Assembly: GCA_016839585.1 (NCBI GenBank)
Contig: JAEOTZ010000064.1
Coordinates: 1-13,683 of the forward strand
Length of the DNA stretch: 13,683 bases
Direction of reading: 5' to 3'
Source: Promethearchaeota archaeon
GTDB lineage: Archaea; Asgardarchaeota; Lokiarchaeia; Sigyniarchaeales; SOKP01
Under the pieces are notes generated by a model that was not told where the DNA came from, ran no database searches, and saw only the letters and a program-made list of their open reading frames with translations. Below are positions 1,565 to 12,067 of this stretch, piece by piece; within the stretch, counting starts at the first letter, position 1; each line of letters begins with the position of its first letter. Made by a program: the position numbers and the translations under genes.

Positions 1565-2398
1565 ATGAATCTTGAAAATTTAATATATGAAGAGAAAGAT
1601 AAAACAGCGTTTATAACGCTTAATCGTCCCGAAGTTAAGAATGCTTTAAGCATGAAACTCTCTGATGAGATAGTTTCAGTAATAGAAATTGTTAGAAAAT
1701 CTAAAAATCTTAAATTTTTAGTTATAAAGGGAGCAGGGAATGATTTCTGTGTTGGTGACGATATTAGTGAAATGACGAGGTGGGGTGATGCAAACGGTAT
1801 TACTCGACGTGCAAGGTATTATCAAAATATGGCTAATCAACTTGAAGAGTTAGATAAAATTACAATTGCTGCTGTAGATGGATATGCGGTCGGTGGTGGT
1901 TTAGAAATAACCATGGCGTGTGATTTTGTTATCGCCACTGAGCGCTCAAAATGGGGGATGCCTGAAGTAGATGTTGGAATAACACCTGGATGGGGGGGTA
2001 CGACAAGATTGGCTCGACTCATTGGTAAAAGGAGGGCGAAAGAGATAAATCTTCTTGGTGCGCTTCATTCCGGTAAAAAAGCCGTCGAATGGAATTTGTG
2101 GAATAGATTAGTTCCTGATGACCAACTTGATAATGAGGTAGAAAAGCTATTGGAAGTACTTAAATCTAAAAACCAGCAAGGCATGCGTCAATTAAAATTT
2201 ATAATTAACCGTGGTGTTGAATGCGATTTGTATACTGCTCAAGGCTTTGAAGTTTTATCAGCTGGCTTGACTGGAGCTGTTAATGGAATGTGGAAAATAA
2301 AAGACGCTGATCAAGGAGAGGGTGTTATCGGTTTTATTCGCAAAGATGGCTTGTGGCAGACTAGAAGACGATTGGCAAAAGATTTTTGGGTTGATTAA
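1565..2398 (+). CDS. Enoyl-CoA hydratase/isomerase (crotonase) family protein
   Basis: ITLNRPEVKNAL, FCVGDDI, IAAVDGYAVGGGLE and GMPEVDVGITPGWGGT motifs; both catalytic Glu positions present. Confidence 0.95.
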   Translation: MNLENLIYEEKDKTAFITLNRPEVKNALSMKLSDEIVSVIEIVRKSKNLKFLVIKGAGNDFCVGDDISEMTRWGDANGITRRARYYQNMANQLEELDKITIAAVDGYAVGGGLEITMACDFVIATERSKWGMPEVDVGITPGWGGTTRLARLIGKRRAKEINLLGALHSGKKAVEWNLWNRLVPDDQLDNEVEKLLEVLKSKNQQGMRQLKFIINRGVECDLYTAQGFEVLSAGLTGAVNGMWKIKDADQGEGVIGFIRKDGLWQTRRRLAKDFWVD

Positions 2399-2437
2399 AC
2401 AAAAGAAAATATACTTATAAATGAAAGTGAATGAATT

Positions 2438-2536
2438 CTAAAATTCCTTAAGGAATTCTTCTTTCATTTTCTCATAGAAATCTAATGATTCTGGATTTCT
2501 TGAGGCACCTCGGTTAGCTACAGCCATTCCATGAAC
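2438..2536 (-). pseudogene. Orphan diverged copy of the acetoacetate-CoA ligase 3' end
   Basis: Minus-strand translation VHGMAVANRGASRNPESLDFYEKMKEEFLKEF* matches the C-terminus IHRMAVANRGALRNPESLDFYEKIREELK* encoded at 3356-3445. Similarity stops upstream of about 2536. Confidence 0.9.
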
Positions 2537-2682: not shown

Positions 2683-2907
2683 ATGGCAAACATAACCCTT
2701 TCAATCCCAGAAGATTTAAAAAAAGAAATGGAAGAATTCCCTGAAATTAATTGGTCAGAAGTTGCTCGAACATCTATTAAACAAAAAATAGCCCATCTTA
2801 AATTTTTAAAAGGATTTCGGATGGATAGTGAAATTACTCCTGAAGATGCCCTAGATCTAGGAAAAGAAGTAAGTAAATTGTTAGCTGACCGTTATATGAG
2901 GGAATAA
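2683..2907 (+). CDS. vapB: Ribbon-helix-helix/CopG-like antitoxin (VapB-type)
   Basis: MANITLSIPEDLKKEMEEFPEINWSEVAR is a typical archaeal RHH antitoxin N-terminus; ends 2 bp before a PIN-domain gene. Confidence 0.8.
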   Translation: MANITLSIPEDLKKEMEEFPEINWSEVARTSIKQKIAHLKFLKGFRMDSEITPEDALDLGKEVSKLLADRYMRE

Positions 2908-2909
2908 TA

Positions 2910-3353
2910 TTGAAATTAGTAATTGATGCTAATATTATATTTGCAGCCTTAATAAAGGAAGGCCTAACTGCTGAGTTAATTATCAATGATGAGCTTCAAT
3001 TATTTGCCCCCGAATTTTTATTAGAAGAAATCTCCAAATATCAAGACCAAATTTTTGAAAAAACACACAGATCAAAAGAAGAATTTGAGATTTTTGTACA
3101 AATACTAAATGAATATATTACTTTTATCCCTCAGAAAAATATTAAACCCTTCCTTGAAAAAGCAAATTTATTTTCACCTGATCCTAAAGATTCTGTTTAT
3201 TTAGCACTAGCATTAGCACTTAAATCGGCAGTTTGGTCAAATGATAAAAAGTTAAAAGAAGAACAAGTTCAAGTAAAAGTGCTATCCACAGAAGATCTAA
3301 TAAATAAAACTAAAATACTTAAAAAGAATAAGAAAAAAATAAAAAGAAATTGA
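2910..3353 (+). CDS. vapC: PIN-domain toxin (VapC-type RNase)
   Basis: LVIDANII, EEI, DPKDSVYLALA and WSNDKKL acidic PIN motifs; TTG start. Confidence 0.9.
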   Translation: MKLVIDANIIFAALIKEGLTAELIINDELQLFAPEFLLEEISKYQDQIFEKTHRSKEEFEIFVQILNEYITFIPQKNIKPFLEKANLFSPDPKDSVYLALALALKSAVWSNDKKLKEEQVQVKVLSTEDLINKTKILKKNKKKIKRN

Positions 3354-3355
3354 AT

Positions 3356-5374
3356 CTATTTTAATTCTTCTCTTATTTTTTCGTAGAAATCAAGCGACTC
3401 AGGATTTCTCAGTGCACCTCTATTAGCTACAGCCATTCTGTGAATAATCTTAGTAACTGCTATTTCAACCTTTTTGTTGCTGAAAGTATAGGGTATGCCA
3501 TCTGAAGGTGTTTGTAATATTAGTTTAGGAACATGTCTAGGTGAAGTTTTCTCTCTTAATGTTTTTTTAATTTTTTCTTTTAATTCATTAGTTAATTTAT
3601 ATCCCTCATTCAATAAAACAAACATTATTATTCTAATATCTCCCTGCCATTTCTGCCCAATAACTAGTGAATCAGCTATCTCGGGAAGTTGTTCAATTAC
3701 ATTATAGATTTCAGCTGTTCCTATTCGTACACCACTTGGTTTAAGAACAGCATCAGATCTACCCCAGAATGTAACTCCTCCAGTATCGCTGTGAATAACG
3801 ATATAATCACCATGCCTCCATACATTTTTGCCAATTTCCTTAAAATGATCAAAGTAAGCAGCTTTATATTTAGTCATATTGTCATCATCACCCCAGAAAT
3901 ATACAGGCATAGATGGTGATGGGGCTTCGCAGACCAGCTCAGCTTGTTCATCTTTTACTGGTTCTGCAATATCATTATAGGATTCAACTTTCATTGCGAG
4001 TGCTCTACCTTGTAATTCACCAGAATAAACAGGTAAGATAGGAATTGCACCTGCAAAACATCCATTGATATCAGTACCGCCACTTATTGAGTTAAAGTAT
4101 AAATCTTTTTTAATTTCACGATAAACATATTCAAATCCTTCAGGAGATAAAGTAGATGCAGTTTGTGAGATTTCTCTAAGTGAACTTAAATCGTATTTCT
4201 TGGCAGGCTTAAGATCAAGACCCATGAGATAATGAATATAAGCAGCGCTAGTTCCAAATATGGAAATTTTATGTTTTTCTATCAATTCAAAAAATCTAAG
4301 AGGATCAGGATAAAGGGGATTGCCATCATATAAAAAGATGGTTGCACCTACTGCTAATGCACTAATCAACCAATTCCACATTTTGGCTGGTATAAGGATA
4401 TCTTATACCATCATCCATGAGGGAGCAGTGATATAGTTCAGTACATCGCTCCTTTTAACATCAGTAGAAAGGATAAGCTCCTTTAGATGGTTTATAAGAA
4501 CTCCTCCAGCGCTCTGTACCATGCTTTTTGGCTTTCCTGTCGTTCCCGAGGAGAACATTACATATATAGGATGGTCGAATGGTAATTGCTCAAATTCAAG
4601 TGGAGGATTCTCATCCTTCGAGATAAAGTCCTCCCAATTGACGGCTTTAGGGATTCCTGATACATCACATTTTCCGTCTGAAATATAAGATACCACCACT
4701 ACTTTTTCTATGGAAGGGAGGGCATCAACGACCTCTTTTGCATTATCTCGAATATCAAATATTTTATCTCGATAAAAATATCCATCTACAGTAAAGAGCA
4801 CTTTTGGCTCAATTTGACCAAATCTATCAATTACTGCACTTGGTTGGAGCTCTGCTCCGCAAGATGCCCAAATTGCACCAATAGTCGCTCCCGCAAGCAT
4901 TGCTACGGGCGTCTCAATTAAGTTAGGAATATATGAAACAACTCTATCTCCAACTTTAACCCCTGCTTCCTTAAGAGATTTAGCTAAACGAGCTACGGTT
5001 TTATTTAATTCTGCATAAGTCATTGTTTTGGATACTTTAGTCTCACCTTGAAAGTCGAAAGCTAATTGATCGTCTTTATACTTCAGAAGGTTCTCCGCAA
5101 AATTGAGAAGACTTCCTTCAAACCATTTTGCCCCAGGAAAATGATTGAGATCATCAATAACTCTATAATATTTCTTGGAACAAATTATACCAGAAAACTC
5201 CCACATAGCTTCCCAAAAATCTGGGATCTCTTCAACTGACCATTTATATAACTCTTTCCCACCTTGAATATTTATTCCGTATTTATCATTAACAAAGTTA
5301 ATAAACCGTGTAATCTCTGTATTTTTTATCCATTCTTCTAAGGGTTCCCAGAGTTTTTTTCTATCATCGCTCAT
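3356..5374 (-). CDS. Acetoacetate-CoA ligase (acetoacetyl-CoA synthetase), two exons: complement(join(3356..4381,4412..5374)), 662 aa
   Basis: LNFAENLL, FSSGTTGKPK, SISGGTD, WRHGD and GRSDAVLKPSGVRIGTAEIY motifs. The two track ORFs are in the same frame, and removing 30 nt rebuilds the family motif SWMMWNW. Confidence 0.92.
4382..4411 (-). other. 30-nt BHB micro-intron in the acetoacetate-CoA ligase mRNA
   Basis: Sense strand: CCUCA UGGA UG^A UGGUAUAAG AUAUC CUUAUACCA GCCA AA^A UGUGG. Perfect 9-bp stem, 3 of 4 central-helix pairs, two 3-nt bulges; contains an in-frame UAA. Confidence 0.85.
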
Positions 5375-5637: not shown

Positions 5638-7431
5638 TTATTTAAAATGCATTTTTTTTCTCTCTAAGCTATCTCTATAATTTTCAAGCATTTCTCGCAT
5701 TAAATCCATCCCTAGATAAATATTGTAACCAACACCACCCCATTCACTATCAGTACGCCAGATTTTGTATGTTATTTTAAAATACCTTCTAACTTGGTTT
5801 ATAAAATTAATGCTTCCTGATGTTATTACAGTTGAGCCCACTTTTCCATCACCATCATAGTACCCTAAAATAAAAGCTAAATATAATTCTCTTGAAGCTA
5901 ATTTTGGCAATTCTATAGATTTAGATTTTTTCTTTCCAACAATGAAACCATGTTTAATTAAATTTTTAGCAAACTCATCACTAACAAACCGAATTCTCAC
6001 ATAATCAGTTATTTCTCCATCTCTTCTAATTTCAGTTTCCTTATGCTCAAGATTAAAACCTATAGCTCTGGCAAATTTATCTAATAAATCTTTCTCATCA
6101 TCTTTATGCAATTCAACTCCAAATCTTAAATATTTGTCATGCTTGGAAAGCCAACCTTCTGCGAATAACCATCCTAACCAATAAGCTTTTTCTTTAGTAT
6201 CAATATATTCAAAATAGTCAATTTTTAAGTTTGGATGCCAGCTGTAGATACCATGAAGTGACTTTTTTAGATTATTAGAATTTTTATATTTATTCAATAG
6301 ATTAATGATTTCTCTTGGAACTCTAGCTAAATTTTTTTTGATATTAGATTCATATTCTTCAATTGTTTCTATTGAAATTAAATAATTTGAATTTTTCTTT
6401 ATTTGGTTCCTCTTTTTTCTAATATGAGAATTTGACTGTCCCAAAATGAGACTTAGTTGCTCATCTGTTAATTGACCTCGCCATAAATTAGTTTCTGAAA
6501 CATTTTTAGCAAGAACACCTTTTAAATCATTTAAAAAGCTTAATGTACTATATTCATTTGTGATTACCGTTAAAAACTCATTAGTTTTTAAAGCTTCTAT
6601 ATCAGATCTAGTAAATTTTTTGGTAAGGTTTTCCTTCCAGAATTCAAGATAAGCGGAGAACCTGTCAAAAGCGGATATCCTTTTATTAGATGAAAGTCCA
6701 AGTAAGCATTTACCTGTGTCTAAATTTAAAATCCTATCATAAAAATCTTTCACTTGGGATAATGGGATATTTTGTTTCTCTCCTATTTTTAATAATTCCA
6801 TTTCTACATTTGAAGAAAATTCGAGCCATTTAATTAACATATTCCTCAGTTCTGGAGAGAGATTTAAAATTTTTTGTTTATTAACAAACACCTCAGAATG
6901 CGCCCGGAGGTGCTTAAGTAGCCTTGTATATTGTAAAGTAATTTCATCAATACCTCTCTTTATCGCATTAAATACTTCTTCTTTTTTTCTCTCAATTTTT
7001 ATACTTAAATCATCCTTGAGAATCTTCAGCTGTTTCTTTGTAATTTGTTTTAAATACGATTTTGAAAGAGAATCCATGTAAGATGAAATGATAGAAGCAC
7101 CCCTTCCAATTGTAATACAATAGATCCAACTGTTAATAAACGTATTTAATTCTTGGGGGTATTTCTCCTTAATTTGGCTCAATAACACCTTAGGAGGGAG
7201 CCCCGCTTTATCAAATAAACATGCTAATGCACCATCAACAATTTCCCCTATTCGTTCATCAATATACACTAAGGGAAGGTGGTGTTGTTTGCATTTAGGG
7301 TATTTTCCAAACCCAAAAAATCCAAGTTTTAAAGGTTTTACTCTTTTCATCATATCACAACCTAATTGAGGACAAATAGCAATCATATCCTCATTTGTGG
7401 TTTTCCGAGATACTTTAGTATATTCTACCAT
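5638..7431 (-). CDS. Protein with an N-terminal Cys/His Zn-binding motif and a C-terminal two-motif LAGLIDADG homing-endonuclease-like domain
   Basis: AYWLGWLFAEG and AFILGYYDGDG motifs about 100 aa apart, followed by ITSGSINFINQV; N-terminal CPQLGC...CKQH. Confidence 0.8.
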   Translation of the reverse strand: MVEYTKVSRKTTNEDMIAICPQLGCDMMKRVKPLKLGFFGFGKYPKCKQHHLPLVYIDERIGEIVDGALACLFDKAGLPPKVLLSQIKEKYPQELNTFINSWIYCITIGRGASIISSYMDSLSKSYLKQITKKQLKILKDDLSIKIERKKEEVFNAIKRGIDEITLQYTRLLKHLRAHSEVFVNKQKILNLSPELRNMLIKWLEFSSNVEMELLKIGEKQNIPLSQVKDFYDRILNLDTGKCLLGLSSNKRISAFDRFSAYLEFWKENLTKKFTRSDIEALKTNEFLTVITNEYSTLSFLNDLKGVLAKNVSETNLWRGQLTDEQLSLILGQSNSHIRKKRNQIKKNSNYLISIETIEEYESNIKKNLARVPREIINLLNKYKNSNNLKKSLHGIYSWHPNLKIDYFEYIDTKEKAYWLGWLFAEGWLSKHDKYLRFGVELHKDDEKDLLDKFARAIGFNLEHKETEIRRDGEITDYVRIRFVSDEFAKNLIKHGFIVGKKKSKSIELPKLASRELYLAFILGYYDGDGKVGSTVITSGSINFINQVRRYFKITYKIWRTDSEWGGVGYNIYLGMDLMREMLENYRDSLERKKMHFK

Positions 7432-8078
7432 TCTTTTAATCCTTCCTCTAAGAATTTATCTTTTCTGATTTTGCATTTCCCGACATTTTCTTCTGAAATT
7501 AATAAGGTAAGTTCATCATCCAATTGAAGATAATTTACTCTCAGCTCCGTATAAAACTCTGAAGCCCAGTTATTAATACTTTTAAATACAATACACATTT
7601 CTTGAGTAATTCTTACAATGAATTTAAGCAGTTTATGGTGTAAGTGTATTTCTTGCTCTGATAATGCATGAATGGTTATAAAGAGTTTTTGTGATACATC
7701 TTTTAAAACTGCGAGGAGACTTTTATTAATTTTATCTTCCATGTGGATAACTCTCTCTAGCAATTTTTTAACTTCAGCTTCATATGAAACGCCACTTCCT
7801 CTAATTTTAAGGAGTAATTTTATAAATTTAGAAGCTAAAGTTTTAAACCTCTTTTTAGTCTCTTTATATTTTTTATCTTCTCCATCAAGACAGGTAATAT
7901 TTTTAGGGCGAAACCTATATTGTATCGTAGCAGTTTTATAATTCAGAAAAGTCCGTAGTTGTCGTGAAAGTTCCTTTACTTTACTTACGCCATATATTTC
8001 ATATAAGCTATATGGTATATCATCTGATTCATATTCCATATAAGGATTCTCTAAATCAAAGTTCATTTTTCTTTCCAA
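7425..8078 (-). CDS. Hypothetical, probably helical protein
   Basis: 217 aa ORF overlapping the LAGLIDADG gene start by 7 nt. Start uncertain (TTG 8078 or ATG 8066); no family recognised. Confidence 0.6.
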   Translation of the reverse strand: MERKMNFDLENPYMEYESDDIPYSLYEIYGVSKVKELSRQLRTFLNYKTATIQYRFRPKNITCLDGEDKKYKETKKRFKTLASKFIKLLLKIRGSGVSYEAEVKKLLERVIHMEDKINKSLLAVLKDVSQKLFITIHALSEQEIHLHHKLLKFIVRITQEMCIVFKSINNWASEFYTELRVNYLQLDDELTLLISEENVGKCKIRKDKFLEEGLKEW

Positions 8079-8360: not shown

Positions 8361-8651
8361 ATGTATCAAGAAATAGTTCCTCTATTAAAATGTCCTAATT
8401 GCAATAAACCATTACATCTTGTAGATTCAGTATTAGAAGCCGGTGAAATAGTACAGGGAAATTTAAAATGTAGTTGAGAAGAGACTTGGGAGATAAGAGA
8501 AGGGATTTTAGATTTCAGCGTAGAAAAACAGGAAAGTGTGAACAGGTGGTGTGAATTAACTAAAGAGATCACATTTGAAGAATTAGATGAGATGATTTTG
8601 AGTAAAAGTGTATTTACGTCTAAACTCAACATATTCACAAATTTTTGCTAA
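8361..8651 (+). pseudogene. Truncated Trm112-like Zn-ribbon N-terminus (as seen in methyltransferase fusions) with an in-frame TGA
   Basis: MYQEIVPLLKCPNCNKPLHL...GEIVQGNLKCS*EETWEIREGILDF. TGA at 8475-8477; the frame then runs into the 3' end of the convergent ACD gene. Confidence 0.65.
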
Positions 8652-10811: not shown

Positions 10812-12067
10812 ATGACCAAAATATTTGAAGAAATCCGCATTCTTGATTGCTCACAGAATTAAAGCATATCGCTTTTTAATGAGTAAAATTCATAAGCGGA
10901 CCTTGGGCGGGTATATTTTTTGCAGATCAAGGGGCTGAAGTAATTAAGGTAGAAATTTGAATGCATATCGTATTCATACTATAACCTCCGCCATTTGGAG
11001 AAAGTTTTCGATACTTTATTTTATATGATAAAACCATGTTTCCCTTATTTTCTATATTAAATAGAGGAAAAAAGTCAATTTCTTTAGATTTAAGAAAAGA
11101 GGAAGCTCAAGAAGTTTTCAAGAAATTAGTGGAAAGATCAGATGTAGTAATAGAAAATTTTGTAAGAGGTACGATGGAAAAGTGGGGTATTGGGTATGAT
11201 GTATTAAAAAACATTAATTCAAAATTAATATATGCCAAAATTTCTGGATATGGTAATGAGGGTTTAGAAGAATACACCAACAAAACAGCTTTCGATATTA
11301 TTATTCAAGCAGAGGCAGGAATCTTAAATGCTCTAGGATTTAAAGAAGGACCTCCGAGACTTCCTATTGCAGATTATACAGCAGGTCATATCGCGGCTAT
11401 TGGGATTAGCCAAGCACTTTATTATAGAGAAAAAACAGGTATTGGGCAATTTATTGATATTTCTATGCATGATATCATGTTTGCTATCAATGTTAGAGCT
11501 CAAGCAAAAGAATTTATACCTTTAGCATCCAAAATTGATGTAGGAGGTAAATTTTTACCAGTTTATAATCAATACAAAACAAAAGATGGTAAAAAAATTG
11601 TATTTACAACTCTAACTGAAAACCAATGGATAAGACTATGCGAAAATGTATTGAAGAAACCAGATTTACTAAAAGATAATAGATTTGATAATATAATTAA
11701 GCGTTTTTCTTATGTAGATGAATTAGATAAGATTATAGAAGAATGGACAACAACTGTAACAAGAGAAGAAGCTATAAAACAACTTAATGAATTCAGAATT
11801 CCATGTGGAAAAACCCTAACCATTAATGAAGTTCATAATCATCCAAACCTAAGGGCAAGGGGGATGTTATGTGATCAATTTGATTTTACAAAATGGGGTG
11901 TTGAAAAAGCAACAATTCCCAACCGATTAATCAATTTCTCCGAAACAAAAGGTTCTGTTAATGTTCCAGGTCCGGAATTTGGTGTTCATAATGAAGAGAT
12001 TTATTGTGGTTTATTAGGGTATAAAAAAGAAGATTTAAAGAGATGGAAGCGTGAGAAAATAATATAA
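10812..12067 (+). CDS. Family III (CaiB/BaiF) CoA-transferase, three exons: join(10812..10854,10887..10954,10985..12067), 397 aa
   Basis: Spliced N-terminus MTKIFEEIRILDCSQFISGPWAGIFFADQGAEVIKVEPPPFGE matches the family pattern. NRGKKSISLDL, DVVIENF and catalytic PIADY follow; GAGG RBS at 10801. Confidence 0.92.
10855..10886 (+). other. 32-nt BHB micro-intron 1 of the CoA-transferase gene
   Basis: UGAUU GCUC AC^A GAAUUAAAGC AUAUC GCUUUUUAAU GAGU AA^A AUUCA. Central helix GCUC/GAGU; excision corrects the frameshift and removes the stop. Confidence 0.8.
10955..10984 (+). other. 30-nt BHB micro-intron 2 of the CoA-transferase gene
   Basis: AG GUAG AA^A UUUGAAUGC AUAUC GUAUUCAUA CUAU AA^C CU. 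Central helix GUAG/CUAU; contains in-frame UGA and UAA; excision gives KVE|PPP. Confidence 0.85.

Follow-up and report, generated by a model that had tools for sequence, protein, structure and literature searches.

Apical loops of bulge-helix-bulge mRNA introns in a Loki-type Asgard archaeon probably carry a selected U-C

Short introns of the tRNA type interrupt protein-coding genes in the genome of this Loki-type Asgard archaeon, and many of them fold into a hairpin with a five-base apical loop, the last two bases of which are UC and lie 8-10 nt upstream of the central helix of the splice-site structure. As comparison of orthologous copies shows, purifying selection maintains the loop U-C while the first three bases drift. 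The NNNUC loop, with its fourth and fifth bases (U4-C5) constrained beyond positions 1-3, is probably a selected recognition element. We came upon it in a window of 13,683 nt (contig C53 of a 3.45 Mb genome with 29% GC), in which three introns happen to carry the same loop. Rab-like GTPases and a ubiquitin E2 encoded in the genome point to its Loki-type affiliation. The joint reading that we favor, at a probability of about 0.55, is that the introns are spliced out of mRNAs by the endonuclease EndA together with RtcB, that a trans-acting factor contacts the unpaired U-C, that one of the introns (intron A) spread by homing, and that the identity of the remaining three loop bases (AUA) is a coincidence.

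The three introns measure 30-32 nt and lie in two genes. The first gene (10812-12067, plus strand; exons 10812-10854, 10887-10954 and 10985-12067) encodes a family III CoA-transferase (PF02515) of 397 amino acids when spliced, with intronless orthologs that are 75-80% identical. Intron B (32 nt, 10855-10886, plus strand; central helix 10849-10852 with 10881-10884) splits its codon 15 (DCSQ|FISGP) and shifts the frame, and intron C (30 nt, 10955-10984, plus strand; central helix 10949-10952 with 10979-10982) sits between KVE and PPP and contains in-frame stops. The second gene (3356-5374, minus strand; 662 amino acids spliced) encodes an acetoacetyl-CoA-synthetase-like AMP-binding enzyme (PF00501, PF16177), whose specific substrate is presumed from sequence motifs; its orthologs have open frames of 665-672 codons. 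Here, intron A (30 nt, 4382-4411, minus strand) is inserted within the WM|MWNW motif and contains an in-frame stop. Upon testing the junctions for a bulge-helix-bulge (BHB), in which a 4-bp helix is flanked by a 3-nt bulge on each strand, we found four of four helix pairs in introns B and C and three of four in intron A, where one pair is mismatched, with flanking helices present. If each 3-nt bulge is cut behind its second base, the joined exons give open frames of 397 and 662 amino acids that are collinear with the intronless orthologs. At their length the introns hold neither a group I or II ribozyme core nor an internal nuclease ORF, and no Rfam match falls on them. On these features we class the three inserts as ORF-less canonical BHB pre-mRNA introns and infer that they are spliced.

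The genome encodes a catalytic EndA alpha, a structural EndA beta and one RtcB. Aeropyrum EndA is the closest match to the alpha subunit, in an alignment that runs through the crenarchaeal-type specificity loop; we take this enzyme type to be the one that splices the cbf5 pre-mRNA. The host's two-subunit tRNA-splicing endonuclease would cut the introns and RtcB would join the exons. Among the genes flanking the EndA subunits and RtcB, we saw no obvious candidate for a loop-binding protein.

All three introns come and go among related genomes. Within the genus, intron B is present in 10 of 28 orthologous loci and absent from the exact same junction in the other 18, intron C is present in 11 of 28, and intron A in 7 of 28 scored loci. 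Each site requires 5-7 gains or losses to account for this patchiness.

The apical pentaloop reads ATATC in intron B (10866-10870, plus strand) and intron C (10965-10969, plus strand), both closed by C-G, and in intron A (4397-4401, minus strand), closed by G-C. The sequence-only reading had proposed an invariant AUAUC, closed by G-C or C-G and borne on diverging arms. The three loops are indeed there and their arms differ from one another as described, but the invariance breaks down in orthologs and in other introns, and the closing pair varies as well: a site-B ortholog has U-A, and the second pfk site has A-U. Orthologous copies carry ATTTC, AATTC, GTTTC, TTTTC, ACCTC, GGTTC, TTATC, TATTC and others: ATTTC, TTTTC, GTTTC, ATGTC and AATTC occur at site B, mostly AATTC at site C and mostly TATTC at site A. 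In all seven other genomes that have both introns, the B and C loops are unlike each other. ATATC is found in none of the 12 other mRNA introns that we located in this genome and in about 3 of 49 other NNNUC loops, and AUAUC loops also occur in pfk and uS4 introns elsewhere. Genome-wide, hairpins with stems of at least 6 bp present an ATATC loop 30 times against 29.7 expected, that is, without enrichment. A high-copy mobile repeat (MITE or REP-like) is ruled out: ATATC, AATTC and ATTTC hairpins are not enriched in the genome, and the arms differ between sites. Given the UC constraint, three identical loops would arise by chance with a probability of about 1-2% (sum of p^3 = 0.012-0.018). The shared AUA is thus most likely a coincidence atop a real two-base constraint, though local copying between introns B and C may instead be the source of their matching loops.

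The two-base constraint becomes apparent when the copies of each intron are aligned. U4-C5 is unchanged in 10 of 10 copies of intron B (10869-10870 in the window), in which positions 1-3 vary, and in 11 of 11 copies of intron C; in intron A, C5 is kept in 7 of 7 copies and U4 in 6 of 7. Parsimony on host-gene trees for sites A, B, C and pfk2 gives 29 changes over 12 columns at loop positions 1-3 (2.4 per column), about the rate of fourfold synonymous sites (2.25-2.73 per column), versus 2 changes over 8 columns at U4-C5 (p = 3e-5, binomial; 8e-7, Poisson; the genomes are related and introns may have moved laterally, so that these and our other p-values assume more independence than there is). 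It was the loops that had drawn attention to sites A, B and C. At pfk2, which was not picked by its loop, we counted 8 changes at positions 1-3 against 1 at U4-C5. No fourfold site at the four loci is all-C in the same taxa. Because positions 1-3 drift at the neutral rate and U4-C5 do not, simple common ancestry is insufficient to explain the motif.

The same signature recurs well beyond the window. We searched for further introns by self-homology, by comparison with three relatives, from which 2.4 Mb was sampled, and by locating individual candidates in the sequence. De novo scans for a BHB combined with an open frame were too noisy on their own, and we kept only cases that were supported by homology or that restored a motif. 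This census covers about 30% of the genome's ORFs (those with a close match in the relatives) plus the individual candidates, and yielded 12 further mRNA introns: in genes for thioredoxin, uS3, dnaG, GAPDH and E2, in three Rab-like genes, two in pfk, and two on contig C33 (8087-8116 and 20954-20984, each with a LAGLIDADG-like family member alongside). Those of two Rab-like genes and GAPDH lie at C43:72715-72743, C47:50778-50807 and C90:43551-43580. The genome thus holds at least 15 mRNA introns, and the lineage 27 intron sites. Five of the 12 have an NNNUC pentaloop and a sixth has a hexaloop that ends in TC, compared to 61 NNNUC loops among 4000 random genomic hairpins (1.5%; binomial p of about 6e-7 for 5/12). 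The sequence-only reading had suggested collecting such instances and would have given up its loop had other introns shown random ones. The outcome falls in between: AUAUC is absent from these 12 introns, yet their loops are not random. Its proposal of an extra recognition factor fares similarly, in that EndA's known recognition of the BHB does not explain a constraint on the loop, but the signal is NNNUC rather than AUAUC.

A replicate blind to the loops gave a concordant picture. In 80 metagenome loci around uS3, with inserts called by alignment only, 4 of 5 new intron sites have NNNUC loops, one of them ATATC. We note that three new sites fall in a single small membrane-protein gene near the ribosomal-protein cluster, two of them in the same copy (L327, L354, L371, L377), that uS4 has one new site (L339), and that uS8 has one site with a 29-nt intron and tetraloops (L325, L343, L358). 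Overall, NNNUC is the majority pentaloop at 15 of 27 independent sites, and 17 of 27 end in UC when hexaloops are counted; the remaining 10 have no UC-ending loop, including this genome's uS3, thioredoxin, GAPDH and E2 introns. The host genes of motif-bearing introns are as varied as Rab GTPases, dnaG, pfk, uS3, uS4 and an undecaprenyl-diphosphate-synthase-like gene. This variety leaves unsupported the earlier suggestion of a switch that co-regulates CoA metabolism.

Throughout the lineage the introns are built alike: a single base leads into an arm of about 9 nt and the 5-nt loop, which is followed by a second arm (8-10 nt), the 4-nt strand of the helix and two last bases. In those with UC loops, the 3' arm keeps to 8-10 nt, whereas the 5' arm varies between 9 and 19 nt. 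The motif is retained with C-G, G-C, U-A and A-U closing pairs, including a compensatory swap of the closing pair. At most sites, judged by eye, purines predominate in the 5' arm beside the loop, and the loop UC together with the 3' arm thus forms a pyrimidine-rich run before the 3' splice site. We also made the comparison with tRNA introns that the sequence-only reading had recommended. The tRNA introns of these genomes are often of the same length, but only about 1 in 20 has a clear NNNUC pentaloop (Fisher p of about 0.008 against the mRNA introns, an approximate contrast, as the tRNA loops come from automated calls, several with mis-set boundaries, and from reading by eye). As a separate observation, the 31-nt intron (loop ATTTT) of this genome's tRNA-Ala at C72:7810-7912 agrees with some of the site-B mRNA introns in 15 of the 16 bases surrounding the loop, which possibly reflects a transfer from tRNA to mRNA or a chance likeness between AT-rich hairpins.

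These properties suggest how the loop might act. In the mechanism that we propose, the unpaired U-C would be a contact for a trans-acting factor that makes the mRNA introns splice efficiently. The constant distance from the UC to the 3' helix strand, set against the variable 5' arm, suggests that this factor is positioned from the BHB, and it would most likely be the splicing machinery or an accessory RNA-binding protein. Fixed 3' spacing, persistence across closing pairs and rarity in tRNA introns together argue for a contact that helps to splice introns of mRNAs, which lack a tRNA body. Because about 40% of sites (10/27) have no UC loop, the U-C would act as an enhancer rather than a requirement. 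More tentatively, and with the odds against it, Loki-type Asgard archaea may have a dedicated factor that reads the loop U-C and its constant spacing from the 3' splice site; such reading would separate mRNA introns from tRNA introns and allow regulated splicing.

How the introns spread is a separate question, and for intron A the neighborhood offers a clue. Between introns A and B lies a gene for a free-standing LAGLIDADG-like protein (5638-7431, minus strand; 597 amino acids; weak PF14528 match), and upstream of it a partner ORF of 217 amino acids (7425-8078, minus strand). Two other genes of the genome have the N-terminal domain of the LAGLIDADG protein in common with it, and each is preceded by a homolog of the partner ORF. 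Among 54 genomes, the three closest homologs of the LAGLIDADG-like protein are 79-82% identical (the next, 53%), and all three flank synthetase genes that bear intron A. A close homolog adjoins 4 of 8 intron-bearing synthetase copies versus 0 of 26 intronless ones (p = 0.0015; one copy was scored as intron-bearing from match length only), remnants lie next to one more intron-bearing and one intronless copy, and the module is absent from the syntenic region of an intronless relative. Elsewhere in the genome, two other family members are neighbors of the two C33 introns, at distances of 0.2 and 1.2 kb, and in three genomes more distant homologs flank intron-bearing pfk genes. Intron A was thus probably spread by collaborative homing with the neighboring LAGLIDADG gene, whose cleavage activity is putative; comparative evidence thereby lends support, for intron A, to the involvement of a mobile element that the sequence-only reading had raised, whereas simple common ancestry does not suffice for the loop. 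Collaborative homing would account for insertion in conserved motifs and would leave the loop constraint unexplained. The link between introns and LAGLIDADG genes is suggestive rather than proven, because 10 of the 15 introns have no family member on their own contig and because the side of the synthetase on which the nuclease gene lies varies among genomes.

The window holds other traces of rearrangement. Segments 2419-2570 and 3342-3476 pair the synthetase 3' end with a diverged second copy of it (104 of 133 aligned bases identical), possibly an integration scar, and a two-gene module resembling an antitoxin and a PIN-domain toxin (2683-3353) parts the duplicate from the real end. At 8361-8620 (plus strand) lies a truncated methyltransferase-like remnant with an in-frame TGA; relatives have a gene of about 294 amino acids between the ligase and the synthetase, and the LAGLIDADG module sits where the 3' part of the remnant would be. 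At 2385-2476 (plus strand), an Rfam family of box C/D snoRNAs matches weakly, below the gathering score (E = 0.05).

Several other explanations of the loop have to be weighed. The conserved bases could be structural only: C5 would pair across the loop with base 1 (A-C, G-C or U-C), and the resulting lone-pair triloop cap would help the hairpin to fold within a translated mRNA, with no protein reader. Position 1 is A in 33, G in 10, U in 8 and C in none of 51 loops, and the predicted fold with G1 does close to a triloop, which makes this the main rival. We nevertheless consider it rather improbable: little follows from a missing C1 at 29% GC, U4 shows the same degree of conservation as C5 and would require a separate reason, and tRNA introns of equal length and geometry mostly do without the motif. 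T-loop mimicry, a UUCG tetraloop and the histone stem-loop were also considered, but their register does not fit. Alternatively, the introns might be copies of one progenitor spread recently by homing, with UC an inherited remnant that has no present function. The stereotyped 9-5-9 build, the patchy presence with its repeated gains or losses, the LAGLIDADG association and the resemblance of site-B introns to the tRNA-Ala intron over about 16 nt (to which we attach no statistical weight) would all fit. Such neutral inheritance is unlikely, as it predicts no contrast within a loop, while positions 1-3 changed about 10 times faster than positions 4-5 of the same loops, and AT bias should have eroded an unpaired C.

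A constraint on the DNA or on the opposite strand, which would read G-A at the start of the loop, might serve as a signal for the insertion machinery or as immunity to a homing nuclease. LAGLIDADG-family genes do lie within 1.3 kb of three introns in the genome, but the motif persists at ribosomal-cluster sites and where we found no such nuclease on the contig, the stems have 17 G-U pairs on the mRNA strand versus 8 would-be G-U pairs on the other (a mild argument), and immunity would be achieved by mere disruption of the target; we therefore give this idea little credence, slightly less than the previous one. It is quite improbable that the inserts are not spliced at all and represent gene-inactivating insertions or assembly artefacts. 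In its favor, splicing is predicted from sequence, and the truncated methyltransferase remnant shows that the region does decay; against this, the same junctions recur in 7-11 divergent genomes with the pairing kept (the four pairs adjoining the loop are retained in 28/28 cases for A, 35/40 for B and 43/44 for C in orthologous copies), the host frames are otherwise intact, and similar inserts occur in uS3 and dnaG, which are normally essential. The least credible account is the original one of an invariant AUAUC bound by a single regulator of CoA-metabolism genes. It draws on the identity of the three window loops and on two host genes that both act on CoA esters, but it is refuted by the differing B and C loops of all seven other genomes that have both, and it conflicts with AUAUC in pfk and uS4 introns and with NNNUC introns in unrelated genes.

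Splicing in archaea is not known to read anything but the shape of the exon-intron junction. If the reading of U-C as a contact for a trans-acting factor is right, the intron's own sequence would count too, through an unpaired dinucleotide conserved in many mRNA introns of those archaea that stand closest to eukaryotes, and our data hint that the UC loop is an unrecognised signal for splicing archaeal mRNAs. NNNUC also offers annotators a signature for genes that are now wrongly called broken in these genomes. The literature that we searched, which leaves out most subscription journals, contains no paper on Asgard mRNA introns or their loops and reports one family of coding-sequence introns in archaea, that of cbf5. 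According to a 2020 study, the mRNA cases were limited to cbf5 and a single intron in a 5' UTR (PMC7714728). The latter, the BHB intron of HVO_1309 in Haloferax volcanii, resembles those described here as an mRNA intron processed by EndA (a role that is predicted here), but lies in an untranslated leader and interrupts no reading frame (PMC7714728). Like the psbA group I intron and F-CphI of cyanophage S-PM2, our intron A involves a free-standing nuclease gene and, adjoining it, a gene in which an ORF-less intron interrupts a conserved motif; unlike them, it combines a LAGLIDADG-like gene, of putative cleavage activity, with a protein-spliced BHB mini-intron in a cellular archaeal genome (PMC6083498). 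The tRNA introns of Asgard and other archaea share with ours the BHB, a similar length (many are 30-31 nt in the genus), the same enzymes and repeated gains (bioRxiv 10.64898/2026.10.13.758758). By contrast, the introns described here lie in mRNAs, and NNNUC is rare in the tRNA introns examined; a term search of that preprint turned up neither mRNA introns nor loop motifs. The closest parallel is the crenarchaeal cbf5 pre-mRNA intron, which is likewise short, ORF-less, placed in coding sequence, framed by a BHB, cut by a hetero-oligomeric EndA with the specificity loop, and patchily gained and lost (PMC2738675). That case concerns a single gene, whereas this genome has at least 15 such introns and its lineage 27 sites. 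Moreover, Yokobori et al. (2009, PMC2738675) describe the interior of the cbf5 intron as highly variable and attribute this to an endonuclease that ignores it, whereas here two unpaired bases of the loop are conserved.
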